Shown here in pieces: positions 1,750 through 36,070 of a DNA stretch of 36,070 bases. Within the stretch, counting starts at the first letter, position 1. Each line of letters opens with the position of its first letter. The position numbers and the translations under genes were made by a program. The notes under the pieces were generated by a model, which saw only the letters and a list, made by a program, of their open reading frames with translations, did not search any database and was not told where the DNA came from. Source of the stretch: a virus; IMG/VR virus record IMGVR_UViG_3300045988_179149, positions 1 to 36,070 of that record; one strand, given 5' to 3'.

Positions 1750-2064
1750 CTAGTCCTCCGATTCTCCCCTGATGGGGGCGTTGACGATTTCCTGGTAGTA
1801 GTGGGTGCCGGTGCCATTTCCGCCCATGCCGTGGTAGGCACCGTAGACCTGCGAGGCCTCCTGCTTGACCCAGTCGGGGCAACCCTTGCCGCTGACCACG
1901 TAGCGCTCATGGAGGTCCACGAGGCGGCTTCGCAGCATCGTCCGAGTGCCCTCCTGCATCGCGTCCATGAGCCGGTACAGGCGCATGAGCGCACCCGCGA
2001 GGGCCGCGAGGACAACCGGCACGGCCCACTGGACGGCCGCGCTGGCTAGTTCTTCCATTCGCAT
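1750..2064 (-). CDS. Membrane-anchored lysis-module protein (second holin-like or accessory protein)
   Basis: N-terminal TM helix AVQWAVPVVLAALAGAL. YHGMGGNGTGTHYY motif. The start may instead be the ATG at 2058, which has better RBS spacing. Confidence 0.55.
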   Translation of the reverse strand: MRMEELASAAVQWAVPVVLAALAGALMRLYRLMDAMQEGTRTMLRSRLVDLHERYVVSGKGCPDWVKQEASQVYGAYHGMGGNGTGTHYYQEIVNAPIRGESED

Positions 2065-2071
2065 GCCCCCA

Positions 2072-2641
2072 CTAAGCCGTCAGCTGCTTCCATGCAGACT
2101 CGCTGCCGAACGTGCCCGGCTCGATTGTGTTGCCGTCCATCAGCGACTCGTAGACCTGGCCGTACTTGGTGACGCGGTCGCCCTTGGCGTATGACTTGCC
2201 GCTGACCCACTCGGGAACGCTCTCGCCTCCGGCCGTGGACGCCACGACCTTCGCCCAGTGCTGGGGGTCGGAAGCGGGATCCGCCGCAGTCGCCGTGTGG
2301 CCGGAAATAGCCTTGTAGAGCGTGCCCTGCCAGAGCACGCGGTCTCCTTGCGCATAGACGTGACCGCATGCGTAGAGCGGATAGAGTGCCGGAACCTTCA
2401 ACGCATCATCGTCGGAGAGGGCGGCCGCCTGGATCTGGGCGAGCATGAGGGCGGCGTCCTGAGGCGTTCCGGCATCGGGAACGAGAGTCCACACCTGCCA
2501 GATGGCGCCGTCATGCTGCTCATAGGAGAGCACCGTGTGGTAACCGGCGCCGGGGTTGGGTTCCGCCGCCTCGCGAATCGGCAGGCCGGAGCCGTCCGTG
2601 GTCAGGTAGACAGACCCAGATACAAATTGTCCGTAAATCAT
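2072..2641 (-). CDS. Fibre/lysis-adjacent protein with two ChtBD3 (CBM5/12)-like carbohydrate-binding repeats (189 aa)
   Basis: ATG after AAGGAGAAAA. Repeats YAQGDRVLWQGTLYKA...HW and YAKGDRVTKYGQVYES...AW. The N-terminus is paralogous to 2650..3057. Confidence 0.6.
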   Translation of the reverse strand: MIYGQFVSGSVYLTTDGSGLPIREAAEPNPGAGYHTVLSYEQHDGAIWQVWTLVPDAGTPQDAALMLAQIQAAALSDDDALKVPALYPLYACGHVYAQGDRVLWQGTLYKAISGHTATAADPASDPQHWAKVVASTAGGESVPEWVSGKSYAKGDRVTKYGQVYESLMDGNTIEPGTFGSESAWKQLTA

Positions 2642-2649
2642 TTTTCTCC

Positions 2650-3057
2650 TTAATGGTTGATTCTTTCCCAAAGCTCCGGAGCCGTATCGGGCTCAGATCC
2701 GATACGGGGCGCATGCGTCTGCAGACACTTGTACAGATCGCCTCCATATGCCACGCGCGCGCCAGCGGCATACGAGGCCTCGCCCACATACCACGGCCGG
2801 ATGAGCTGGGGCACCTTCAGCGCGTCCTCATCACCGAGAGTCTCGGCGGACATGGCAGCAAGCCGCACCGCGTCATCGCGCACCCCGTCCGGCACGACAC
2901 TCCATACTTGGTAGATGGAACCGCCCCGCTGCTCATACGCCATGTCCGCCTTGAAACCCTCGGGGACCTCAGGCTCATCAGACGCGAGAATCGGGAGACC
3001 CCTCCCGTCTGTCGCCAGGCGCACTGCGGGCCCGACAAGGGTCCCGATCAATGCCAT
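2650..3057 (-). CDS. Paralogue of 2072..2641 with one ChtBD3-like repeat (135 aa)
   Basis: ATG after AAAGGAG. Shares TDG-GLPI...YEQ..G-I-QVW-VVPD...DALKVP with its neighbour. Repeat YAAGARVAYGGDLYKC...LW. Confidence 0.6.
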   Translation of the reverse strand: MALIGTLVGPAVRLATDGRGLPILASDEPEVPEGFKADMAYEQRGGSIYQVWSVVPDGVRDDAVRLAAMSAETLGDEDALKVPQLIRPWYVGEASYAAGARVAYGGDLYKCLQTHAPRIGSEPDTAPELWERINH

Positions 3058-3153
3058 TTAGACTCCTTTCTCTCGACCTCTCGTGGCAGAAATCCCACGC
3101 GCGTATCCTCTCCTTGAGAGCCCACGCGTCTGGGATTTACGGGATTGGAGACC

Positions 3154-4026
3154 ATGATGAAAGTTGCAGAGGCCGCCTCGAGGTACATGGACGACAAGCG
3201 CGGCAGGCTGCGCGCCTGCACCCTGGCCGGATACGAGAGCGCGCTAGCGCTGCACGTCCTACCTCGCTGGGGCGAGCTGGAACTCGAGTCGATAACGCCC
3301 GAGGGCGTACAGGGCTGGATTGATTCGTTTGATCTGCCGGGGGCCGCCGAAAAGGCGTACAAGACCCTGCGGCAGGTTATCCGCTGGGCCATCCGCCGTC
3401 TCGGTGTGCGGATGTACGACCCCACCGCCGCCGGTGTCGAGCTACCGCACAAGCCGGCGCACCGCCCACGCACGATGGAGGCGAGCCAGGTCCGTGCCTA
3501 CCTCCGCGCGCTGTGGGGACACGAGTGCGAGGCAGTCGCAATCTGCTCGGTAACCCTCGGGCTGAGGCGCGGCGAGGCGTGCGGCCTCAAGTGGTCGGAC
3601 ATCGACCTGCGCACCGGCGAGGTCCGCATCCGCCGTTCGAGGCAAGTCGTGCGCGGCAATGAGGTCGTCGAGGCGCCGAAGACCGAGCGCTCCGCGCGGT
3701 CCTGCTGGCTCCCCCGCTTCGCCGTCAAGCGCCTGCGCGCGCTGCGAAAGGGCCGCTCGGGCTGGCTGTGCGAACTGTCGCCCGACGCCATCGCGCGGCG
3801 CATCAAGTCCGCATGTCGCCAAGCCGGAGCCGCCTGGACCTCGATGACGGAATGCCGCCACACGTGGGCGACGCTCGCCGTGGAGGCTGGGGTCGGCATC
3901 GAGACCGTGGCCATGATGCTGGGGCACACCGATATCGGCACGGCATACGAGCACTACATCGTGCCGAGGCCGCGCATCTGCAAGGATGCGCAGCGCGAGG
4001 TCGAGCGGCTGATACTGGGCGGGTGA
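3154..4026 (+). CDS. Tyrosine recombinase, putative shufflon-specific (Rci-like role)
   Basis: Catalytic signature: LGLRRGEACGL (Arg), ECRHTWATL (R-H box), LGHTDIGTAYEHY (His and Tyr). Opposite strand to all neighbours. Its stop TGA (4024-4026) overlaps site R1. The start may be 3145, 3154 or 3157. Confidence 0.85.
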   Translation: MMKVAEAASRYMDDKRGRLRACTLAGYESALALHVLPRWGELELESITPEGVQGWIDSFDLPGAAEKAYKTLRQVIRWAIRRLGVRMYDPTAAGVELPHKPAHRPRTMEASQVRAYLRALWGHECEAVAICSVTLGLRRGEACGLKWSDIDLRTGEVRIRRSRQVVRGNEVVEAPKTERSARSCWLPRFAVKRLRALRKGRSGWLCELSPDAIARRIKSACRQAGAAWTSMTECRHTWATLAVEAGVGIETVAMMLGHTDIGTAYEHYIVPRPRICKDAQREVERLILGG

Positions 4027-4037
4027 TTCTGTATCCC
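4025..4037 (+). repeat. Shufflon site R1
   Basis: tGATTCTGTATCCCtcc; overlaps the recombinase stop codon. Confidence 0.85.
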
Positions 4038-4270
4038 TCCCTGCTATCACGGTGCAAAGAATTGACGGAAATGTCGGCGCCAGCATAACCGCCCCATCTA
4101 TCGATGGATACTCTTTTGCAGCATGGATAGCTTGCATATCAAGCGGATGGGTTGGCAGTGCCTATATCGAAAAGCCACTAGATAAAATATCGAGGACATG
4201 GATGGTGTCGAAGCGGTGGGAGTCAAGCGAGACGGCAATTGCGTGCTATGCCCTTTATGTGCGACAGTGA
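4025..4270 (+). other. Silent fibre C-terminal cassette 1 (81 codons, no own start)
   Basis: In frame from R1: DSVSLPAITVQRIDGNVGAS...CYALYVRQ*. Contains track ORF 4052..4270. Confidence 0.75.
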
Positions 4271-4281
4271 TTCTGTATCCC
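4269..4281 (+). repeat. Shufflon site R2
   Basis: tGATTCTGTATCCCtga; overlaps the TGA stop of cassette 1. Confidence 0.85.
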
Positions 4282-4613
4282 TGACAGCAACGAACGACTT
4301 TTGGAAGGTTCGTCACGCCTGCAGGACAATTGGAAAAATAGCAGTACTGTCAGTCCACGCCACTCGCGTCGACAATAACTGGGTCAACGCTCAGGCTTGG
4401 GAGAGGTCGCAGGTTTTGGCGTACCCACCGGAGTTGGCTCCGGTGGGAGGCGAAGTGCTGGCGCCTGCCATCAGCAGTGTCTCTTCGGATGGCCATACCG
4501 ACTGCTTGGGCATAAACGTCGACTCCAGGGGCATCAACGTCAGGATTGTCAGGCAGTGCACCATTCCATCGGGCGCTTGGGTCTCCGGAGTCCTAGTCTG
4601 GCCGATCGCTTAG
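4269..4613 (+). other. Silent fibre C-terminal cassette 2 (114 codons)
   Basis: In frame from R2: DSVSLTATNDFWKVRHACRT...GVLVWPIA*. Same frame as track ORF 4239..4613. Confidence 0.75.
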
Positions 4614-4626
4614 CATTCTGTATCCC
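4614..4626 (+). repeat. Shufflon site R3
   Basis: tagCATTCTGTATCCCgtg; abuts the TAG stop of cassette 2. Confidence 0.85.
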
Positions 4627-4895
4627 GTGCGCCGAGAATTTTTGTCGGTAACAAGATCGTACAATTCAACAATGGGAAGGTCACGACGCTTTGGAACAAG
4701 GCGGACTTTGAGCGGGAGTTCGGGCGTTGCTTCGATAATTCCCGCGATTCCGTTTACGGGATGAACGGTGATGCGGTCTTCGACTTCATGGTTGATGCCG
4801 TAAATTTCTACCCGCGCACCGAGGAGCTCGTCGTCGCAATCAGCGGTGCGCACACTGGCCCATTCCGTGTGAATTACATCGTGGTGATGGGCTAG
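4614..4895 (+). other. Silent fibre C-terminal cassette 3 (93 codons)
   Basis: In frame from R3: HSVSRAPRIFVGNKIVQFNNGK...GPFRVNYIVVMG*. It has no Met, so it is absent from the ORF track. Homologous to cassette 6. Confidence 0.75.
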
Positions 4896-4908
4896 GATTC
4901 TGTATCCC
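4896..4908 (+). repeat. Shufflon site R4
   Basis: tagGATTCTGTATCCCcga; abuts the TAG stop of cassette 3. Confidence 0.85.
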
Positions 4909-5195
4909 CGAGGGTCGTGGGGCAGACAAACGCCGGAAAGCTGTATCAGCCTTTCCGGTGCGACCTCCCATTGGACAGGATGGCGGCGCTCATCTGCATC
5001 TACGACAACGGGCGCCCGCTGGCGTCGACTGTATTCCCCATATCCGTCTTCGCGCAATACTGCACCGGCTCAGGGGTTTGCGCCGACTGCTATTACAGCC
5101 CGGGCGGTTTCGGCGTCCACGCCTACTATACGGGCGGCATGCTCTACCTTATGGCTGACGCCAACATATACAAAGCAGCATTCGTCGTGTTTTAG
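4896..5195 (+). other. Silent fibre C-terminal cassette 4 (99 codons)
   Basis: In frame from R4: DSVSPRVVGQTNAGKLYQPF...IYKAAFVVF*. Contains track ORF 4917..5195. Confidence 0.75.
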
Positions 5196-5467
5196 GTACA
5201 GACCACGGCCTGGCCGGAGAAGTTTCCTGACGTCGCGGAGAAACAGAAGACGGCTCCATTTGTGTCGATCTTGACGTAGCCTGAGGCACTGCCCACGTTA
5301 AGACATCCGATTGCCTCCGTCACCGGTTTAAAAGGCAGATGGCAAACGATGCGACCGGTATTTCCCGTAAGAGAGATGTTTTTCAGCTGGACGACAACGG
5401 TGCGCCCGATGCCGACACAAGTGACGCCGTCGGCTGGAGCCGTGAGGACGGCTTGGGATACAGAATG
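5192..5467 (-). other. Silent fibre C-terminal cassette 5 (91 codons)
   Basis: In frame from R5: HSVSQAVLTAPADGVTCVGIGRTVVVQLKN...FSGQAVVCT*. It has no Met, so it is not in the ORF track. Its stop overlaps the cassette 4 stop. Confidence 0.75.
5455..5467 (-). repeat. Shufflon site R5
   Basis: The minus strand reads tagCATTCTGTATCCCaag. It is head-to-head with R6 across a 21-nt spacer. Confidence 0.85.
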
Positions 5468-5488
5468 CTATACGTTTACCGTTCCCAG

Positions 5489-5501
5489 CATTCTGTATCC
5501 C
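5489..5501 (+). repeat. Shufflon site R6
   Basis: cagCATTCTGTATCCCaaa. Confidence 0.85.
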
Positions 5502-5779
5502 AAAACGAGTATCCCAAGGTCATATGCGGCTCAGTGGTGCGCAACGCGAGTGGCTTCAATGCTGTGATGGTGTTCAGCTCGGAGCAGTTTAAGGAGATCG
5601 CGGGGAGGGCGTTCGACAACAGCAAAGACTGCATCTCGGTCATAAACGCGGACGGTAACGCGAGCGGCGCCGTCGTCACGGGCGTCATCTACGACCCGAA
5701 CACGAAGCACATTGATGCCCATCTGAGCGGCACGACCTACGCCATAAGGCTGAATTACATCATCACATTGGGGGCCTAG
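5489..5779 (+). other. Silent fibre C-terminal cassette 6 (96 codons)
   Basis: In frame from R6: HSVSQNEYPKVICGSVVRNASGF...YAIRLNYIITLGA*. This is the 3' part of track ORF 5339..5779. Confidence 0.75.
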
Positions 5780-6099
5780 GCGAGGATAACCAGACCGTAC
5801 AGGTCGGTAGTCGCCGCCGCCCCATAGCCGCTTCCGCTGACGCGCACGATGCCGTTGGTACCGATAGATGCCGTCGTTGTCCCGACGTATGTGGTGGCGA
5901 CCATGAGCCTGCCCCACAGACGAACAGTGGTCTCCAGATGGAACGGAAGGATGAACTCGGCGTACGCGGGCGTAGGGTTCAGGGTACGCTGGATCGTCAG
6001 CATATAGTTGTCGCGTTCGATATGAACGAGTGAATAGTTCCATCCCTCGGCAATCCCGCTGCGGTCGAGCGACGGGTCGCGGCCTTGGGATACAGAATG
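5776..6099 (-). other. Silent fibre C-terminal cassette 7 (107 codons)
   Basis: In frame from R7: HSVSQGRDPSLDRSGIAEGWNYSLVHIERDNYMLTIQ...LYGLVILA*. Contains track ORF 5776..6003. Its stop overlaps the cassette 6 stop in CCTAGG. Confidence 0.75.
6087..6099 (-). repeat. Shufflon site R7
   Basis: The minus strand reads tagCATTCTGTATCCCaag. It abuts the TAG stop (6100-6102) of the expressed fibre gene. Confidence 0.85.
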
Positions 6100-6909
6100 C
6101 TATATGCCGGCTATCCACACGATGAACGCGGAGACATCCGAATTGATATTGGAACTGTCTCCGCTGCCAACCCTAATCTTTCCAGTGTTGCCGTCAATGA
6201 TGAGGCGAGCATTGGCGTTTGGGTAGGCATACGCAGGAGCCTGAAGCTCTTTTTTCGGCCTCTTATCAAGCGGTAGGACGTAAGGGCAGTCTTTCAGAGT
6301 CCAACCGCTTCCGGTTACCTTGACGCTCTTCGCGATGACTGTACAGAACATCCCGGAGCTCACTATGAGCCACGAGGCATCAGAGTAAAGCACTGTCGGG
6401 GATACAGAATCCCCGAGGTCTGCCAGCGGGGTCAGCTCGGGGATGAGAAGCTTGGGCTGGCCCGTGGTCAGCCCGTCGAATGTCACCGAGCAGATCGGGA
6501 CCGTCACGTCGGCGTCACCGTCCAGGATGGAGCCTTTCGGCACCGACGGCGCGGCGGCGCTCGAGCCGGGGGTTCCCTGGAGAACCTTCCACTCAACCGT
6601 CTCGACAAGGGTCGGGCTGGACCCGCTCACATCGCGGGTGTAATGGACGCAAATGTAGTCCATGCGCTTCTTGCCTTGCGAGCCGCTCGCCACCTTGACG
6701 TCCTCGGGCGCGGTGACACCGATTTGGCGACCCTGCACGATCATGTCGCCGGTCGCGATACGGACGGTGTTCGCGTCGACGAGAGATGGGGCAAGTTTGC
6801 CGCCCGTCTGCAGCACATAGCTGCCAGTGCCGACTTCACCCGCAATGCGGCGCCCGTCGTCGGCCGAGCTGACGTGTGGCACGCCCGCTTTGCCGGTCAC
6901 AATCTCCAT
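6100..6909 (-). CDS. Tail fibre / receptor-binding protein, currently expressed isoform (constant aa 1-166 plus cassette 8, aa 167-269)
   Basis: ATG abuts the upstream TAA. It is the last structural gene of the tail module. R8 lies in frame at codon 167. Confidence 0.8.
   Translation of the reverse strand: MEIVTGKAGVPHVSSADDGRRIAGEVGTGSYVLQTGGKLAPSLVDANTVRIATGDMIVQGRQIGVTAPEDVKVASGSQGKKRMDYICVHYTRDVSGSSPTLVETVEWKVLQGTPGSSAAAPSVPKGSILDGDADVTVPICSVTFDGLTTGQPKLLIPELTPLADLGDSVSPTVLYSDASWLIVSSGMFCTVIAKSVKVTGSGWTLKDCPYVLPLDKRPKKELQAPAYAYPNANARLIIDGNTGKIRVGSGDSSNINSDVSAFIVWIAGI
6399..6411 (-). repeat. Shufflon site R8 (inside the expressed fibre gene, codons 167-170 DSVS)
   Basis: The minus strand reads gggGATTCTGTATCCCcga. 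It marks the boundary between the constant N-terminal 166 codons and the variable C-terminus. Confidence 0.85.
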
Positions 6910-7140
6910 TTAAGCCGTCCTTTCCCATATAAAGCCGTTCTGGCTGTCCCGCATGGCCCACGTTCCCCCATAGGTGGCGCCGGGGTTCTTCCCCTGGCTC
7001 TCCATGTAGAGAGAGCCGACGGGATGGGCGGCGAGGAACACCTTGGCGGTCGAGGCCTCGGGGCCTTGTGGCCCTTGCGGGCCCCGAGGCCCCGTAGACC
7101 CGGTCGGTCCTTTAATGTTGCCTATCTTTGTCCAGGCCAT
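6910..7140 (-). CDS. Short collagen-like (G-X-Y) fibre protein with a tail-collar-like C-terminus (76 aa)
   Basis: [27 protein letters not shown] followed by HPVGSLYME..GGTWAM. Internal ATG of ORF 6910..7509. Confidence 0.65.
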   Translation of the reverse strand: MAWTKIGNIKGPTGSTGPRGPQGPQGPEASTAKVFLAAHPVGSLYMESQGKNPGATYGGTWAMRDSQNGFIWERTA

Positions 7141-7153
7141 AGCGCAACCCCAG

Positions 7154-7405
7154 CTAGGCCTTATAGGTGTACAGGTTTCCGGTCGAGGCGTCGATGTACA
7201 CCGAGCCGACCACCGCGACGCCGCTCGGGGCGCCGGTTCCCGCAGTGACGGAGGTGCCGTCCGCGCCCTTCGGGCCCGTCGGGCCGGTCGGGCCCTGGGA
7301 GCCCGTGGCGCCCTTCTCTCCCTGCGGGCCCCGCGGTCCGGTCTCGCCGGTGGCGCCCCTGTCGCCCTTGGGCCCCTTGAGCGAGCCGATGTTCGTCCAT
7401 GCCAT
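7154..7405 (-). CDS. Collagen-like fibre protein (83 aa)
   Basis: [35 protein letters not shown]... ending [15 protein letters not shown]. Confidence 0.7.
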
Positions 7406-7420
7406 GATGAGCTCCTTTCG

Positions 7421-8098
7421 CTAGACCGTCTGGCCGTACTGGTAGACCTTGAAGCCGTCGGCGGTGTCGATGTAGACCGCGCCCTCCTGCGAGGCGGACG
7501 TAGGAGCACCCTGGCCGAAGGTAATGCCGGGACCAGCCGGGCCCTGCGCGCCCGTGGCGCCCTTCTCGCCCCTGTCCCCCGTAGCGCCCTTCTCGCCCCT
7601 GTCTCCCTTAGGGCCCTTCATCTCGCCGAGGTCTGTCCACTGGGCGTCGCCGGACATCGACGTCTTGACCCACATGTGGCCGTTATCGCTCGTGACGTAG
7701 GTGTCGCCGACCGCCGCATCTGCAGGCAGGGCGTTCTTGTCGGCGACGGCGCCCTTGACGGTGATGGACGTGCCGTCGGCGCCCTTCTCGCCTGCGTCGC
7801 CCTTGGGGCCCTGCGGGCCCTTGACGCTTACGCCCTCGACGGCTTCGCCGACGTGCGCGGTGCTGCCCGCCAAGTCCACGGACGCAATGGCGTACACGTC
7901 GCCGTTGACGTCGATGACCACGTCGCCGACCTGTACGCCGTCGGCAGGCTTGAGCGCGGAGAAGGCAACGTCGCTGTTGCTCTTCACGTCGATGTTCGCG
8001 ACCCTGACGCTGCCGCCCTTGGCGCCCGTCGCGCCGGTCGCGCCCCTCGGCCCCTGCGGGCCCATGAGCGTGCCGACCTGGTTCCATGCGTTAGCCAT
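7421..8098 (-). CDS. Collagen-like fibre protein (225 aa) with three G-X-Y blocks
   Basis: MANAWNQVGTLMGPQGPRGATGATGAKG..., [48 protein letters not shown]; ends VYIDTADGFKVYQY. Confidence 0.7.
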   Translation of the reverse strand: MANAWNQVGTLMGPQGPRGATGATGAKGGSVRVANIDVKSNSDVAFSALKPADGVQVGDVVIDVNGDVYAIASVDLAGSTAHVGEAVEGVSVKGPQGPKGDAGEKGADGTSITVKGAVADKNALPADAAVGDTYVTSDNGHMWVKTSMSGDAQWTDLGEMKGPKGDRGEKGATGDRGEKGATGAQGPAGPGITFGQGAPTSASQEGAVYIDTADGFKVYQYGQTV

Positions 8099-8564
8099 TT
8101 GTATCTCCAATCTCGCCGTAGCGATAATAGGTGCCAGTCTCACTGTCGAGGTAGAGGTCCCCGACGCGACCACCTATGGCGGGGGTGCCGCCCCCGACAT
8201 ACCACTTCGTGCCGGGTTCGCCTGCGGACTTCAGCTGCTCTCGCACCCAATCTTCGACATCAGCCCAGGTCTTGACCTCGTCATCGGTGTAGATGTAGCC
8301 GTCCGGCTTGGCCCTCGGGCGCACCTTGAGCACGGCGCGCGCGTGCGTGTCGCGCCCATCGCTCGCCCAAACGGCCATGTCAACACCCGCAGTAAGCAGG
8401 AGCGAGGGCACCACGGCCTCGCCGCCCACGACCGGGACGACCAATGCGCGCTCCGATCCGGCGACGGCGAAATGTGCCTCCGTCACCCCCTGCAACGCGA
8501 TGTGAACGCGCCGACCCGTATCCCATTGGTAAAGGGGCGGGCCGATGAGCTCTATCTGCTTCAT
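8091..8564 (-). CDS. Baseplate/fibre-associated structural protein (157 aa)
   Basis: ATG after AGGAGA. The C-terminus GDLYLDSETGTYYRY shares the YxD..TG..Y.Y motif with the two downstream fibre proteins. Confidence 0.5.
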   Translation of the reverse strand: MKQIELIGPPLYQWDTGRRVHIALQGVTEAHFAVAGSERALVVPVVGGEAVVPSLLLTAGVDMAVWASDGRDTHARAVLKVRPRAKPDGYIYTDDEVKTWADVEDWVREQLKSAGEPGTKWYVGGGTPAIGGRVGDLYLDSETGTYYRYGEIGDTNG

Positions 8565-18159: not shown

Positions 18160-18244
18160 TGGTCGGGGCGGCGGGACTCGAACCCGCACGGGCGATGCCC
18201 GCGTGCTCCTGAGGCACGTGCGTCTGCCATTCCGCCACGCCCCG
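18160..18244 (-). tRNA. tRNA-Leu(CAG), 85 nt, long variable arm, CCA encoded
   Basis: Hand-folded: CGGGGCG/CGCCCCG acceptor, U8, anticodon arm CGTGC-CTCAGGA-GCACG, variable arm cgggcatcgcccgt, T-arm GCGGG-TTCGAGT-CCCGC. Confidence 0.8.
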
Positions 18245-18245
18245 A

Positions 18246-18319
18246 TGGCACCTGGCCGAGGAATCGAACCCCGGTAAGCGGTTTTGGAGACCGCCGCACT
18301 GCCATTGTGCTAGCCAGGT
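18246..18319 (-). tRNA. tRNA-Trp(CCA), 74 nt, CCA encoded
   Basis: Hand-folded: ACCTGGC/GCCAGGT acceptor, anticodon arm GCGGT-CTCCAAA-ACCGC, T-arm CGGGG-TTCGATT-CCTCG. Confidence 0.8.
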
Positions 18320-28375: not shown

Positions 28376-29073
28376 GACGCCTCCGCAACTTGACGCTCGA
28401 GCTCGGTTATGAGCTCGTCATCCGTCTTCGCCGGCTGCCACACCGCCGCGCGCTCGACCTCCTGCGAGGTCTGGCCGCCGCGTGCCTTGCGCTCGGCGTC
28501 GTAGCCCTTCTCGCGGTCGGACCAGCTGCGGGCAACCGGCTCCCATTTCGCGATGGGGAAACCCTGCCTGGTCCAGCCGTTGGCCTCGTAGTAGTCGTAG
28601 AACTTCCGGGCGCTGCCGCGAAGACAGTTCGCCGCGAAGTACGCCTCGACCTCCTCGAGGGTAGGCGGGACGAATTCGGCGCCACCTCCCCCTCTGTTTT
28701 CACAACCGGAGGGGTTAATCCAGACTCCTAACTCCTCTTCCCCTTCCTCTTCCTCTTCGCTTGCGTGTTTGCTATCTACTTTGCTTGCGCTTTTGCTTTC
28801 CGTTTTGCTCGTGCGTTTGCTTTTAGCTTTGCTTGCGGCTCCGCTTGCTGTGCCGCCACGGCTCAGCCCGCCCTTCCTCCCGGCAACAGACTTAGCGCGG
28901 CTGTTCTCGAGGACCGGCATGATCATCGTGATGGCCATCCGCTGGGCGTCGGTGCGCGGCTCGGGCACCTCGCCGGTCACGAGGTAGCGCACCATCATGC
29001 CGAGCAGCTCGTTGCTCTCGCGCCTGTTGCCTAGGCACAGGGCGCCCTCCACGAGGGAATCAAGTATCGTCAT
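28372..29073 (-). CDS. Early protein with a Ser/Lys/Glu low-complexity linker, possibly replication-organiser-like (233 aa)
   Basis: ATG after GGAGGTGAG. C-terminal FYDYYEANGWTRQGFPIAKWEPVARSW motif, recalled from phage replication-module proteins. The function is not established. Confidence 0.45.
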   Translation of the reverse strand: MTILDSLVEGALCLGNRRESNELLGMMVRYLVTGEVPEPRTDAQRMAITMIMPVLENSRAKSVAGRKGGLSRGGTASGAASKAKSKRTSKTESKSASKVDSKHASEEEEEGEEELGVWINPSGCENRGGGGAEFVPPTLEEVEAYFAANCLRGSARKFYDYYEANGWTRQGFPIAKWEPVARSWSDREKGYDAERKARGGQTSQEVERAAVWQPAKTDDELITELERQVAEAS

Positions 29074-30262
29074 CCGTCTCACCTCCGTGCGATATCGACT
29101 CGGTAAAGGCCGCGGCGGCGGCCTGGTCGCGGCCCGGCATGACCGAGCCGTAGATGTCGAGCGTCGTCTTGACGCTCGCGTGCCCCAGGCGCTCCTGGAT
29201 GGTCCTCATGTCGAACCCGTTCATGAGCAGCCACGAGGCATGCGTGTGCCTCAACGAGTGGAACACTGTCTCCTCCGGCAGCCCCAGGTCCCTCACGAGC
29301 GACTTGAAGCGGCTCGTCACGGTGGACGGGCGAGCGATGCCGCCTGCCGGCCCGAAGGTCACCACCGGCGCCGCCGGGCCCTTGCGCGAGAGCCACGTGT
29401 CCTGCCACTCCAGGTGGCGCTGCAGCTGCGCCTCCACCGCCGGGGCGAGCGCCACGTTGCGCACGCGCCTGCCCTTGGTGTAGGCCTGCCGGTGCAGCTC
29501 GGGGTGCTCGACCGCCTGCCCCACGACGTGCAGGTCGTGCAGGGCGCAGCGCCAGTCTCGGCGCTGCAGCCCGCAGATCTCCCCGCAGCGAAGACCCGTA
29601 TTGAGGGCGAGGTAGACCGCCATGGCCTCGGTGCGCCGCGAGATGTTGGCGGCAGAGGCAGATCGCGAGGACATGGCAGACACCAGCGCTCGGGAGAGCT
29701 CGTCGGTGTCGAGCTCGGACAGCGCGAACGGCTCCACGGGGTCGGGCGAGGGCGCGGGGACGTCGAGCATGATGTCGCGGCCCAGCGCCGGTCGCCACGA
29801 GCGGTAGGCGCCCTTGAGGAGCGCGTGCATCTTGAGCAGCGTCTTGGGCGACAGCCCCTTGCCGCTCCTGGGGGCGAGCAGCATGCGGTACGCCGCCGAC
29901 ACGTCCCAGGGCTCAAGCTGGTCGTAGGGAAGCCGCCCGATGGTCGGCTCCACCATCGTCCTGACCACGCTGCGGTACGTGGCCACGGAATTGTCGGACA
30001 GGCCGTTGACGGGGTCGGAGATGTACGTCTCGAGCATCGAGGACAGGCGCTTGGAGCTGTCCCGGGCCGACGACGGGTCGAACGTGGCCGCCCACCTGTC
30101 GCACTCGGCCTGGGCCTGCTCGCGCGTCAGGTGGGCGTCCCACGACCTGTACGGCCTGATCCGCCTGCCGGTCACGCGGTCGGTGCCCATGTAGGGTCGG
30201 GCGAACCAGCGCCCGTCCTCCCCGCGCTGCACGACCGCGCGGCGCTCGCTAGAAGTCGGCAT
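29060..30262 (-). CDS. Tyrosine recombinase no. 2 (400 aa), embedded in the early operon
   Basis: LNTGLRCGEICGL, FHSLRHTHASWLL, LGHASVKTTLDIYGSV. The ATG at 30262 overlaps the upstream gene end. Confidence 0.8.
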   Translation of the reverse strand: MPTSSERRAVVQRGEDGRWFARPYMGTDRVTGRRIRPYRSWDAHLTREQAQAECDRWAATFDPSSARDSSKRLSSMLETYISDPVNGLSDNSVATYRSVVRTMVEPTIGRLPYDQLEPWDVSAAYRMLLAPRSGKGLSPKTLLKMHALLKGAYRSWRPALGRDIMLDVPAPSPDPVEPFALSELDTDELSRALVSAMSSRSASAANISRRTEAMAVYLALNTGLRCGEICGLQRRDWRCALHDLHVVGQAVEHPELHRQAYTKGRRVRNVALAPAVEAQLQRHLEWQDTWLSRKGPAAPVVTFGPAGGIARPSTVTSRFKSLVRDLGLPEETVFHSLRHTHASWLLMNGFDMRTIQERLGHASVKTTLDIYGSVMPGRDQAAAAAFTESISHGGETDDDT

Positions 30263-30605
30263 CGACGCCCAGCTCCGCCGCCATGTCGCGGATCTCCCTG
30301 CGCGCATCCAGGTCGAGGGTCTGGATGCTGTCGGCGTGCCCGTGGGGGTCGGCACCGAGCACGGCGATGAGCATGAGCTTGCGAGCGATGTCGGCCGGCG
30401 CGCCAGCCTGGCGGAAGGCCTCGTAGAGCGTGTCGGCGCAAGCGCCGGTGAGCATGAGGAGGTCGGAAAGCCCGCCCGAGCCCACGAAGCACGCGTTGCC
30501 GGTGCCGTCGCCGTGGCCGATCGAGACCGTCGCGCAGCGGCACTCGAAAGCGCGGACCTCGCCGCAGGCCTCCACCGTCACCCTGACCTTCTCCTCGCTA
30601 CTCAT
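30249..30605 (-). CDS. Hypothetical protein (118 aa)
   Basis: ATG after AAGGAGGAGAAGG. Overlaps the ParB-like stop. Confidence 0.5.
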   Translation of the reverse strand: MSSEEKVRVTVEACGEVRAFECRCATVSIGHGDGTGNACFVGSGGLSDLLMLTGACADTLYEAFRQAGAPADIARKLMLIAVLGADPHGHADSIQTLDLDARREIRDMAAELGVDADF

Positions 30606-31851
30606 CCTTCTCCTCCTTGAAACTCGCCTGAACCCTCTCCATGAGCCACACGTCCTCCTCGCCGGGCTCGAAGCCCACGGAGCAGAAGATGTCATAGTGG
30701 TCGAGCCACGCCTCCGCGTCGTCGCCGCCCCAGCGGTTGTTGAGCTGGGCCATGTCCTTGGCCGCCGCCATGAGCCAGCAGCCGGCCTCGTACTCGCTGG
30801 GCTTACAAGCCTTGAGGTTGCGGGCGAACTCGTCTCGCACGAGCCCGAAACGCTCCTCGTTCTCGACGTGGCTGTCGCCGCCCATCGCCACGAGCAGCGC
30901 GGACGGGTCGGCACGGTCCACGCGCACCTCCATCATGAGGTCCTTGGACATGGCAAAGGCACCGGACGCCACGAAGCCGATCAGGCTCCTGTACAGCTCC
31001 TCGAGCGCCGCCTTCTCGCGCGCGGCCTCCTGCTCGGCCCGAATCTCCTCCTCGGTCTTCTCGGGCTCGGCGCCCGAGCCGTCATCCGGCTCGTAGAGGT
31101 CCCAGTAGTTGCCCTTCCACACGGCAACGGTGCCGGCGGCGAACTCCTTCCCCTCGAGTTTCTGGGCGGCGAGGCCGACGTTGGCCCAGTCCGTGTTGTT
31201 GAAACCCTCCGGCTGCTCCTTCACCACCGGGATGCCCGCGTCGCCGAAGGCGTCATAGTCCTCGGCCTTGGCCTCCTCGCGCTCGACGCGGCGGCGGATG
31301 CTGTCGGCCTTGCCCGCCCAGCCGTCACCGGCGGCGAGGACCGCCTCGACGTCCTTCTCGTCGTCGAAGGCGCTCGCGGCCTCGAGCTGCTCCAGCGTCA
31401 CCTGCACGCCAGCATCGATGCGACCGCGCAGTTTGCGTGCAGCCCGAATCTGCCCGGCGGTGGCTCGGCTCGCGCGCTCGATGCGCTGCTCGTCGATGCC
31501 CAGCACGAGCATCTGCTGCACGCCGCGTGCGCGCTCGGCCTCGGTCAGCTGGCGCTTGTCATCGGTGGCGAGCATGGCCACGAGCTCGTTGGCCTCGTCC
31601 ATGGTGTCGGCCACCAGCGCGGAAACCTCGCGGTCCTCCCCGTAGATGGACGACAGCGCGCGGTAGCGGCGCTCGCCGTCAACGATACGGAACACGTTGC
31701 CGTCCGCCACGACCACGGGCGGGTTCAGCGGCTCGCCGCCGGTCGCCTCGATGCTGCGGGCCAGGGCGCCGATGTCGCCGAAGTCCTCGCGCGGGTTCTG
31801 CCCGCTGGGGCGGATGTCGCCCAGACGAACCTGCCTCTTCTCGAATTGCAT
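30598..31851 (-). CDS. ParB/Srx N-terminal-domain protein (417 aa)
   Basis: ATG after AGGAGGAA. IRPSGQNPRED...PPVVVADGNVFRIVDGERRYRAL. Confidence 0.75.
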   Translation of the reverse strand: MQFEKRQVRLGDIRPSGQNPREDFGDIGALARSIEATGGEPLNPPVVVADGNVFRIVDGERRYRALSSIYGEDREVSALVADTMDEANELVAMLATDDKRQLTEAERARGVQQMLVLGIDEQRIERASRATAGQIRAARKLRGRIDAGVQVTLEQLEAASAFDDEKDVEAVLAAGDGWAGKADSIRRRVEREEAKAEDYDAFGDAGIPVVKEQPEGFNNTDWANVGLAAQKLEGKEFAAGTVAVWKGNYWDLYEPDDGSGAEPEKTEEEIRAEQEAAREKAALEELYRSLIGFVASGAFAMSKDLMMEVRVDRADPSALLVAMGGDSHVENEERFGLVRDEFARNLKACKPSEYEAGCWLMAAAKDMAQLNNRWGGDDAEAWLDHYDIFCSVGFEPGEEDVWLMERVQASFKEEKDE

Positions 31852-34643: not shown

Positions 34644-34715
34644 CCCCACGAAAATGGGCAGGCGACTGCTTAAGTTGTTGCAGAAAACGCAACGACTGTT
34701 ACAGACACAAAGAAA

Positions 34716-34749
34716 CCCCGTGCGGCAATCTTGGCGGATCCGCACGGGG
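34716..34749 (+). terminator. Hairpin ccccgtgcgg/ccgcacgggg after the cargo gene (no T-tract)
   Basis: 10-bp inverted repeat with a 14-nt loop. Confidence 0.35.
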
Positions 34750-34788
34750 CATATGCCCTCCGGCAAAAGGGAAAGGCAGGACCATTAT

Positions 34789-36027
34789 ATGGCAACCAAC
34801 GATACTTCAAGGTCAAAACTCGGCTCCAAGCGCGAGGTCGCGCCCGGCAAATGGGTGATCCGCGTGCAGGCTGGCTTCCGCGCGGACGGGCACGTGCGGC
34901 GCGTGTCGCGCACCGTCCACGGCACAGAGACCGAGGCCGATATCGCCATCGCCCAGCTCGCCCGCGAGCTCGGCGTGTCCCAGGCGGCGCACGCGGGCGT
35001 GACGCTCGACATGTACTACTGGGGAGTTTTCCGCGATTCCCCCAGCAACCGCGGCAAGCCGCGCTCAAAGGCGAGTCTGCGCGAGTACGACGGGCAGATG
35101 GACAACTACATCTCCCCCGTCCTGGGGGGCATCGACATCTCCGAGATCACCCACGACATGATGCGAAGCTGCATCGAGCGCTCGGGCGCGCCTGCCAAGA
35201 CCAAGACGACACTGCGCGCCGTCATGCGCCGCGCCTTCGATGACGGATGGGTGACGGTGGAGCCCTTCCGCCGGCGCGTCATCGCGCCCAAGGCCAAGCA
35301 GGCTCCCGTGGAGCCGTGGAGCATCCCCGAGGCCGCCGAGGCGCTGCGCAGGCTCGCCGCCAGCGACGACCGCGCCGATCTGGTCATGAACGCCTACCTC
35401 ATCCTCGGCCTGAGCGGCCTGCGCAAGGAGGAGGCACTGGCGGTGCGCCCGTGCGACCTCAAGGTCACCACGACCTACGACTTCGCCACGGGCCAGCCGA
35501 CCGTGTCGGAGTACATCGAGGTCTGCCGCGCGTACACGGACGAGGACGGCGTGAAGGAGACCAAGAACGCCCATTCCGTGCGCACCGTGCCGGTTTTATT
35601 GGCGGGCCGCAAGCGCCTGCACCAGATCATGGACGAGCTGCGCCCATCCATAACCGTCGAGGGCGGCACTTCGGTTACGAAGCAGGTTCGCGAGTGGAGC
35701 GGCCAGCGCATCGTCAACATGCGCGGCGACAACCTCGTGCGGGCGTGGCGGCGCATGTGCGCACGCCATGACCTGCGGTATATCCCGCCCAAGGCCCTGC
35801 GCCACACGTCCGAGACCATCATGGCGGCGACCGAGGTCGACCCCCTGAGCATCATGGACCTGCACGGGCATACGGACCTGGGGACAGATTACCGCCATTA
35901 CATCAAACCGGGCCTCGCGGAGCGCGAGAAGGCCGCCAGGCAGGTCGGGCGCGCCCTGCAGATCGTCGAGGGAGGCGGCGCGGACGGCGGTTTTAATGGC
36001 ACCGGTCTGGGCGCCGAAACGCTCTAA
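34789..36027 (+). CDS. int: Integrase (tyrosine recombinase no. 3, 412 aa)
   Basis: The ATG at 34789 gives MATNDTSRSKLG. ILGLSGLRKEEALAV, PKALRHTSETIMA, HGHTDLGTDYRHYI. attP lies just downstream across the junction. Confidence 0.85.
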   Translation: MATNDTSRSKLGSKREVAPGKWVIRVQAGFRADGHVRRVSRTVHGTETEADIAIAQLARELGVSQAAHAGVTLDMYYWGVFRDSPSNRGKPRSKASLREYDGQMDNYISPVLGGIDISEITHDMMRSCIERSGAPAKTKTTLRAVMRRAFDDGWVTVEPFRRRVIAPKAKQAPVEPWSIPEAAEALRRLAASDDRADLVMNAYLILGLSGLRKEEALAVRPCDLKVTTTYDFATGQPTVSEYIEVCRAYTDEDGVKETKNAHSVRTVPVLLAGRKRLHQIMDELRPSITVEGGTSVTKQVREWSGQRIVNMRGDNLVRAWRRMCARHDLRYIPPKALRHTSETIMAATEVDPLSIMDLHGHTDLGTDYRHYIKPGLAEREKAARQVGRALQIVEGGGADGGFNGTGLGAETL

Positions 36028-36070
36028 ATTGCATTTTCTAGGTCCACTACCTGCAAAATGCATAAAACGC
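36016..36070. repeat. Second copy of the 55-nt terminal repeat
   Basis: Identical to nt 1-55. Contains the last 12 nt of the integrase gene. Confidence 0.9.

Follow-up and report, generated by a model that had tools for sequence, protein, structure and literature searches.

Background

The described systems closest to the locus considered here are the Rin shufflons. One was reported in the Bifidobacterium prophages Bb423phi1, Bl157phi1 and Bl30698phi1 (Mavrich et al. 2018, Sci Rep 8:12772, PMC6109161). In that system rin encodes an XerD-like armless tyrosine invertase, separate from the prophage integrase, and five Rv cassettes are divided by an 11-bp asymmetric site, rix (TTCCCTAACCC). The constant part of the protein, Rc, has 168 residues. 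The Rv parts have 95-100 residues, are 6-30% identical to one another and resemble the receptor-binding protein (RBP) of phage TP901-1 (4IOS_A, 4HEM_C, 2F0C_A). Inversions at rix were seen in both prophage and virion reads, with most reads in one orientation (PMC6109161). A Rin shufflon has also been reported in the clade 1 prophages of Eggerthella lenta, with rix given as ttccgtat and with Rv proteins reported to have H-type lectin domains (Buttimer et al. 2022, Microorganisms 10:195, PMC8778435). This work concerns positions 3145-6909 of the virus record IMGVR_UViG_3300045988_179149 from IMG/VR, all 36,070 nucleotides of which were analysed and are called the window below. We will argue from sequence comparison that this locus, in a temperate Collinsella siphovirus of 36 kb, is very probably a shufflon of the Rin type and inverts to swap receptor-binding tips.

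Two older kinds of switch have to be kept in mind. The shufflon of R64 and other IncI plasmids uses the recombinase Rci and sfx sites to exchange the C-termini of PilV, the adhesin at the pilus tip of a conjugative plasmid. Gin of Mu, Cin of P1, Pin of e14 and Min of p15B are serine invertases that work with an enhancer and Fis, and Min is a multi-segment system.

The original prediction for this locus, made without a literature search, knew of no described system with its combination of features. The combination had been published, as the Rin shufflon, in 2018 (PMC6109161) and again, for the Coriobacteriia, in 2022 (PMC8778435). What we have here is a further, well-supported member of a published kind of system, with more cassettes and from a host genus that is new to it.

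Anatomy of the locus

The last tail gene of the window, Rc-Rv8 (6100-6909, minus strand), encodes 269 amino acids. The locus consists of this gene, a series of silent cassettes beyond its end and a convergent recombinase gene:

3145-4026, plus strand: rin, tyrosine recombinase of 293 amino acids, presumed invertase, convergent with Rc
4026-4037, plus strand: rix1, exact core; its first base is the A of the rin TGA stop
4025-4270, plus strand: Rv1, silent cassette of 81 codons, the shortest; no natural Rc fusion found
4270-4281, plus strand: rix2, exact core
4269-4613, plus strand: Rv2, silent cassette of 114 codons; Rc fusion P0046 is 89% identical (residues 167-280)
4615-4626, plus strand: rix3, exact core
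4614-4895, plus strand: Rv3, silent cassette of 93 codons with 3 Met; Rc fusions P0110 and P0102 are 79% identical
4897-4908, plus strand: rix4, exact core
4896-5195, plus strand: Rv4, silent cassette of 99 codons, convergent with Rv5; Rc fusions P0030 and P0021 are 91% identical
5192-5467, minus strand: Rv5, silent cassette of 91 codons with no Met; Rc fusion P0035 is 87% identical
5455-5466, minus strand: rix5, exact core
5467-5489, no strand: 23-bp spacer between the back-to-back rix5 and rix6
5490-5501, plus strand: rix6, exact core
5489-5779, plus strand: Rv6, silent cassette of 96 codons, convergent with Rv7; Rc fusion P0045 is 96% identical
5776-6099, minus strand: Rv7, silent cassette of 107 codons; Rc fusion P0098 is 98% identical
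6087-6098, minus strand: rix7, starting one base past the TAG stop of the expressed gene
6100-6411, minus strand: Rv8, the currently expressed C-terminal head, 103 codons (residues 167-269) and the stop
6399-6410, minus strand: rix8, within the expressed gene at codons 167-170, read DSVS
6412-6909, minus strand: Rc, the constant N-terminal 166 residues of the receptor-binding protein

The 12-nt core ATTCTGTATCCC is present in eight exact copies in the window, five on the plus strand and three on the minus, and all of them lie inside 2.4 kb. About 0.04 copies would be expected by chance, none of 100 shuffles gave eight, and a search of the window with one mismatch allowed found no additional copies. 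With the G or C that precedes it, every core is read xAT-TCT-GTA-TCC, or D/H-S-V-S. Each is followed by a stop-free stretch of 81-114 codons that ends at the next core or at the stop of a convergent cassette. The copy at 6399-6410 is the sole core in a complete open reading frame, where its D is codon 167, and the TGA stop of the recombinase gene shares one base with the first core. On the cores, their frame, the cassettes and the end of the recombinase gene our analysis agrees with the original prediction, whose plus-strand coordinates for the cores are one base lower than ours since they count the preceding G or C. It also claimed that two cassettes contain no Met at all, which is right for 5192-5467 and wrong for 4614-4895, where there are three Met codons.

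In 122 site contexts from relatives the conservation reaches 4 nt beyond the left side of the core, as (T)(A/G)G(C/G), a stretch made up mostly of the stop codon of the preceding cassette. The spacer at 5467-5489 has an in-frame TAG directly behind rix5 and appears to be what is left of the 3' end of a cassette. Rv1 carries the only terminator-like hairpin of the region (4094-4107), and it may be a decayed cassette.

The eight cassettes are only 11-26% identical in pairwise comparison. Their GC content also stands apart, at 0.52-0.58 over the cassette region (4000-6400) versus 0.65-0.72 in rin and the tail genes, which suggests that the heads have another origin or evolve under other constraints. 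A Pfam search with a threshold as loose as E <= 1 found no domain in Rc or in the cassettes Rv1-Rv8. Structure was compared for one cassette, Rv8. In an AlphaFold model of Rc-Rv8, residues 170-269 form an all-beta head with a predicted local distance difference test (pLDDT) of about 90. The top Foldseek matches of this head in the PDB are the RBPs of the lactococcal phages TP901-1 (2f0c_A, 4hem_C, 4ios_A) and p2 (2bse_A, 1zru). Their probability is 1.00 and their template-modelling score (TMt) about 0.5-0.6 on head-only chains (0.61 for 2f0c and 2bse), with modest E values of 5e-3 to 4e-2. The reovirus sigma1 and adenovirus fibre heads come next. The model thus shows a receptor-binding-head fold for Rv8.

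The enzyme is an Xer-like tyrosine recombinase. Pfam finds Phage_integrase in Rin (1.6e-15, residues 137-272) and Phage_int_SAM_3, a SAM-like core-binding domain, from residue 9, which leaves no room for an arm-binding domain. Rin keeps the Arg-I, the Arg-His of box II, the histidine of the LGH motif and the conserved Tyr. Its closest counterparts in the PDB and in NCBIfam are XerC, XerD and XerA, all well below the family cut-offs. The mechanical start of the reading frame is TTG 3145, but ATG 3154 or 3157 aligns with the Met of relatives and one of these is probably the true start.

Rearrangements, fusions and broken contigs

Inversion is supported by relatives of this phage. Prophages whose rin is 93-97% identical at the DNA level share its cassettes and differ in how these are ordered and oriented (L035, L079, L020, L036 and L212). 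In L035 the Rv4/Rv5 module is inverted and moved beside rin (99.7% identity) and Rv8 is placed elsewhere. In L079 it is the Rv6/Rv7 module that is inverted, and in L020 and L212 Rv7 is joined to Rc as the expressed cassette. Inversions of whole blocks separate L001 and L086 from L085, and L083 from L009. The alignment blocks of the window against L035, L020, L036 and L079 begin and finish on the 12-bp cores.

The protein databases contain the products expected of such exchanges. A search with the Rc-Rv8 protein found 352 proteins, many of them 96-99% identical over about 63-65% of the query, which is essentially the Rc part, and differing in length. More than 60 database proteins have an Rc at this level of identity and differing C-termini. 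Among the best 120 of the 352 there are full-length fusions in which Rc is joined at residue 167 to homologues of Rv2-Rv8 (79-98% identical overall, 91% for Rv8). The junction is D-SVS in 113 of these 120, with 82 distinct tail starts. This D is what one would expect if Rc keeps the base on the left of the core. The original prediction allowed for up to eight tips; seven are borne out by fusions (Rv2-Rv8), and Rv1 has never been seen fused. It also pointed out that homologous phages might show the cassettes to be independent genes, which is not what we find, since Rc fusions exist for seven of them.

Contigs tend to break at this locus. Of 41 contigs with a near-identical recombinase 19 end within the shufflon, all at 11-118 nt past the start of a core, and ten of the 19 end at 52-54 nt. 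For k = 55, a distance of 53-54 nt corresponds to the core start plus k-1. These ends indicate branching of the assembly graph at the cores and hence mixed junctions within samples, which come either from switching or from co-existing variants.

Inversion alone could bring any cassette into use. A breadth-first enumeration of inversions between opposed cores gives 13,440 arrangements, and all eight cassettes can reach Rc; besides Rv8, which is there at present, five need a single inversion, and Rv5 and Rv7 need two. Rc is followed by a genuine cassette start in all of these arrangements, never by the tail of a cassette or by the spacer. The core-bounded rearrangements in relatives, the fusions, the contig breaks and the head fold of Rv8 together support the central claim of the original prediction, a shufflon of the tyrosine-recombinase type that swaps the tip of a siphovirus tail protein by inversion.

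Proposed mechanism

We propose that the last tail gene encodes a receptor-binding protein made of the constant 166-residue Rc and an Rv head of about 100 residues, joined at a rix core. Between Rc and the convergent rin there are seven promoterless head cassettes, each opening with the same in-frame core, and the stop codon of each silent cassette sits right at the next core. The armless Xer-like Rin would recombine pairs of oppositely oriented cores and invert the DNA between them. Such an inversion would set a different cassette behind Rc and change the host receptor that the virion recognises. We infer that Rin is the catalyst, that switching is ongoing in this phage and that the heads differ in receptor specificity.

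The Rin family and its cores

The phage loci that tie the window to the Bifidobacterium system are those of Bifidobacterium phage PMBT6 and of ctl617, which share its architecture and whose recombinases are 43% identical to Rin. Rc is 34% and 42% identical to the Rc of PMBT6 and ctl617, respectively. The Rc alignment runs as far as the junction, which reads DSVS in the window and DSVT in these two loci, so the site is the same in position and frame.

Comparison of related loci shows that the core changes with the recombinase lineage. The form ATTCYGTATCCC is the core in Collinsella, Olsenella, Enteroscipio and Cryptobacterium; ATTCTGTATCCC is found in this window and in Cryptobacterium, and ATTCCGTATCCC in Olsenella, Enteroscipio and other Collinsella. 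Two contigs of about 130 kb have larger arrays than the window, with ten copies of ATTCCATATCCC each (L102, 10915-14038; L104, 10914-13961), the array of L104 having nine direct copies and one inverted copy. ctl617 has seven copies of TTCCGTAACCC, and arrays of at least two are present in 69 of the 80 ctl617-type loci (L130-L209). Three copies of TTTCCGTAA lie beside the PMBT6 recombinase. The forms ATTCCGTATCCC and TTCCGTAACCC, which are intermediate between the core of the window and the published rix, adjoin homologous recombinases.

All but one of the 17 Actinomycetota loci examined that have a homologue of the recombinase adjoin such an array, the exception being L096. Clostridia recombinases that are 25-28% identical (L044-L078) have no neighbouring repeat arrays. 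We do not count these as Rin and treat them as ordinary integrases for this reason.

Alternative explanations

Several observations weigh against the reading given here, and they should be judged together with the alternatives. One alternative is that the locus is a fossil, a shufflon shaped by past Rin inversions that is now frozen, with rin inactive or unexpressed or with the arrangement fixed. Two assemblies of the phage (run ERR1398190, assembly ERZ926749; sample SAMEA3951648, from which the window comes) have one identical and unbroken arrangement at 100% identity, although they may share data. One isoform is dominant in these data either way, and any switching that takes place is infrequent. 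The isolate assemblies L001, L018, L019, L020 and L029 also run through the locus without a break; L001, L018 and L020 come from the C. aerofaciens strains TM115-146, BSD2780061688st1_F5 and D53t1_180928_G4, respectively. The His-II residue of Rin, three residues before the conserved Arg-His, is Thr. There is no convincing promoter upstream of rin; a scan of 2000-8300 for promoters and terminators gave nothing above the shuffled expectation and is uninformative on rin expression. However, little switching is also what was seen in the published Bifidobacterium system (PMC6109161). Thr, Arg or Lys in place of His is common to the whole family (L031, L034, L038, L043, L102, L128 and L129), including loci that have been rearranged. 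A frozen locus would not be expected to have eight perfectly identical cores and eight cassettes that are all stop-free and in frame, nor an intact rin that is 94-99% identical to those of dozens of relatives whose loci differ by inversions. We believe that a fossil is improbable.

The remaining objections concern individual pieces of evidence for an active Rin shufflon. Strains living side by side, and not switching within one clone, could be the source of the breaks in metagenome contigs. Among about 5.8 billion proteins, a fusion of Rv1 to Rc is absent both from the top 120 matches and from a dedicated Rv1 search, which found just a 56-residue fragment. The Rc half of the AlphaFold model is unusable (pLDDT <40) because the alignment is nearly invariant over Rc. 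A profile of Rc searched against PDB sequences gives no match to 4L9B and a weak one (E = 0.003) to 30yz_W, a 'receptor-binding protein', over residues 5-81, and this is a weak link. The bridge to Bb423phi1 is an indirect one, by way of the architecture, the PMBT6 and ctl617 homology and a core that differs by one base. The published 11-mer TTCCCTAACCC is absent from the 80 ctl617-type loci, which have a one-base variant, and either these are different lineages or the printed site is off by one base.

Another explanation for the rearrangements is recombination of the RecA type, or illegitimate recombination, between phages at short repeats, the neighbouring recombinase being an unrelated integrase or resolvase. 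This has the merit of explaining why cassette content is strongly different between otherwise near-identical prophages, since this requires exchange between genomes and not inversion alone. But 12 bp is too short for efficient homologous recombination, and the breakpoints lie exactly at the cores. Nor would it account for the arrays beside 16 of 17 recombinase homologues or for a core that varies by recombinase lineage. The recombinase is also a poor candidate for an ordinary integrase, since it lacks an arm-binding domain and the window has two other, larger integrase-family genes. We consider this explanation very improbable. It is harder still to believe that each cassette is a small gene translated on its own, with the repeat serving as a signal for translation or processing. 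Gene callers do annotate several of them as small open reading frames, and most have internal Met codons. Yet there is no start codon at or near the conserved core, Rv5 has no Met of any kind, and the core is read in one frame as DSVS that continues the frame of Rc. Seven of the cassettes exist as full-length fusions to Rc, the cassettes lie in both orientations, and the Rv8 head needs the Rc stem, as in the RBPs of TP901-1 and p2. This idea is scarcely credible.

There is a further idea that extends the Rin shufflon rather than competing with it. Prophages whose rin and Rc are about 93-99% identical have largely different cassette sets, with 2-10 sites. This turnover on near-identical backbones, the at least 82 heads on one Rc and the low GC of the cassettes suggest that Rin loci might form an open, integron-like network of cassette exchange across gut Actinomycetota prophages, with intermolecular recombination at rix besides inversion. 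We think this unlikely on present evidence, though less so than any of the alternatives above. If it were true, Rin would capture head cassettes and swap them between co-resident phages, which would bear on how an armless tyrosine recombinase controls inversion versus deletion.

The phage and its host

The window, a scaffold from a gut metagenome in ENA, is the complete genome of a phage of temperate siphovirus type. On the minus strand, genes for portal, head protease, tape measure, Dit and minor tail protein are followed by three for collagen-like fibres and by Rc-Rv8. Next come the shufflon and the convergent recombinase gene, and beyond these the genes for two CBM5/12 proteins, holin and endolysin. 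Bases 1-55 are the same as bases 36016-36070, so the window closes into a circle of 36,015 bp. A second assembly (k127) is 36,142 bp long, or 36,015 + 127, and has another start point and the same shufflon arrangement. The phage DNA was probably excised or replicating in the sample.

Judged by its relatives, the phage infects Collinsella. About 40 contigs, from C. aerofaciens isolates and Collinsella metagenome-assembled genomes (MAGs), have a recombinase 94-99% identical to Rin, and in Olsenella and related Coriobacteriia the identity is 74-89%. With this host and the gene order of a siphovirus, the description of the phage as a GC-rich siphovirus of Gram-positive type in the original prediction was correct. 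Two short contigs with the recombinase of the Collinsella phages were binned in Sodaliphilus and Bacteroidaceae MAGs (L002, L010), and these are most likely mis-binned fragments that were broken at the shufflon. With blastn the segment 3000-7000 matched nothing in the INPHARED phage records; relatives were found at the protein level only.

Either of two larger integrase-family (tyrosine-recombinase) genes could serve the integration of the phage: 29060-30355 (minus strand, 431 amino acids) and 34654-36027 (plus strand, 457 amino acids, phrog_1 integrase). One of the two adjoins a gene with a ParB_N-like domain (30598-31851). Directly upstream of Rc there are three successive collagen-repeat (G-X-Y) genes (6910-8173, minus strand) with similar N-termini, and they look like a small paralogous fibre family. 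The two proteins with CBM5/12 carbohydrate-binding modules (2072-3057, minus strand) are encoded between rin and the holin gene, on the strand of the tail genes and downstream of the shufflon. Adjacent genes for tRNA-Leu(CAG) and tRNA-Trp(CCA) lie among the structural genes at 18160-18319 (minus strand), downstream of the head-protease gene.

Significance

This locus leaves the concept of the Rin shufflon, published in 2018, as it was. What it adds is the extension to Collinsella, a prevalent gut genus for which no report of a shufflon was found in the literature searched, and its eight cassettes put it among the larger arrays. Members of the family are spread widely over the prophages of gut Actinomycetota, being found in Bifidobacterium, Collinsella, Olsenella, Enteroscipio and Cryptobacterium, and by the literature in Eggerthella. 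The family has a very large pool of receptor-binding heads on one constant stem. This affects the prediction of host range and phage taxonomy, as well as metagenome assembly, because contigs break at shufflon loci. The locus is also a natural scaffold for swapping RBP heads.

Comparison with known systems

The shufflon of R64 is like this one in several ways. Both have multiple inversion by a tyrosine recombinase at short asymmetric repeats, swaps of the C-terminus in one adhesin gene, and convergent pairs of cassettes. The target is different, however, because here it is a phage tail gene and in R64 it is the tip adhesin of a conjugative type IV pilus. We exclude membership in the R64 type on the basis of this tail-gene target in the structural module of a siphovirus and of a recombinase nearest to Xer; the sequence of Rci itself was not compared. 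The original prediction called the enzyme Rci-like rather than Gin-like. It was right about the class, which is tyrosine and not serine, but in its sequence the enzyme resembles the Xer proteins.

Gin, Cin, Pin and Min lead to the same outcome, since they also exchange the C-termini of tail fibres or RBPs by site-specific inversion and change the host range. We reject a system of this type here because the adjacent enzyme belongs to the Phage_integrase (tyrosine) family, with the note that the search of the window for serine recombinases was not exhaustive.

The Rin shufflon of E. lenta is in the same host class, Coriobacteriia, and has the same layout of a tyrosine recombinase, small Rv genes and a larger Rc gene. 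Its site ttccgtat agrees with the core of this window at 7 of 8 positions, the window having the T variant at the one base that differs, and it is contained whole in the ATTCCGTATCCC core of Olsenella and other Collinsella relatives. The genus is a different one. The cassettes here have no Pfam domain, so the H-type lectin is not reproduced, and the model of Rv8 resembles TP901-1 and p2.

The agreement with the Bifidobacterium Rin system is the most extensive. The order is the same, with rin, rix-separated Rv cassettes and a convergent Rc, and in both systems the RBP gene contains one rix and has another directly past its stop. Both have an armless Xer-like recombinase, distinct there from the prophage integrase and here from the two larger integrase-family genes elsewhere in the genome. 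Rc has 166 residues here and 168 there, the Rv parts have 81-114 and 95-100, and the cassettes are 11-26% and 6-30% identical to one another. The Rv8 head matches the same PDB entries that were cited for the Bifidobacterium Rv (2F0C_A, 4HEM_C and 4IOS_A). Inversion was seen in reads for the Bifidobacterium prophages, while for this phage the evidence is comparative only. The two systems differ in that the host is Collinsella, one of the Coriobacteriia, the core is 12 bp and there are eight cassettes at eight sites rather than five cassettes. Between TTCTGTATCCC here and TTCCCTAACCC there, 3 of 11 positions differ and 8 of 11 are shared in the skeleton TTCnnTAnCCC, so the sites are related without being identical.

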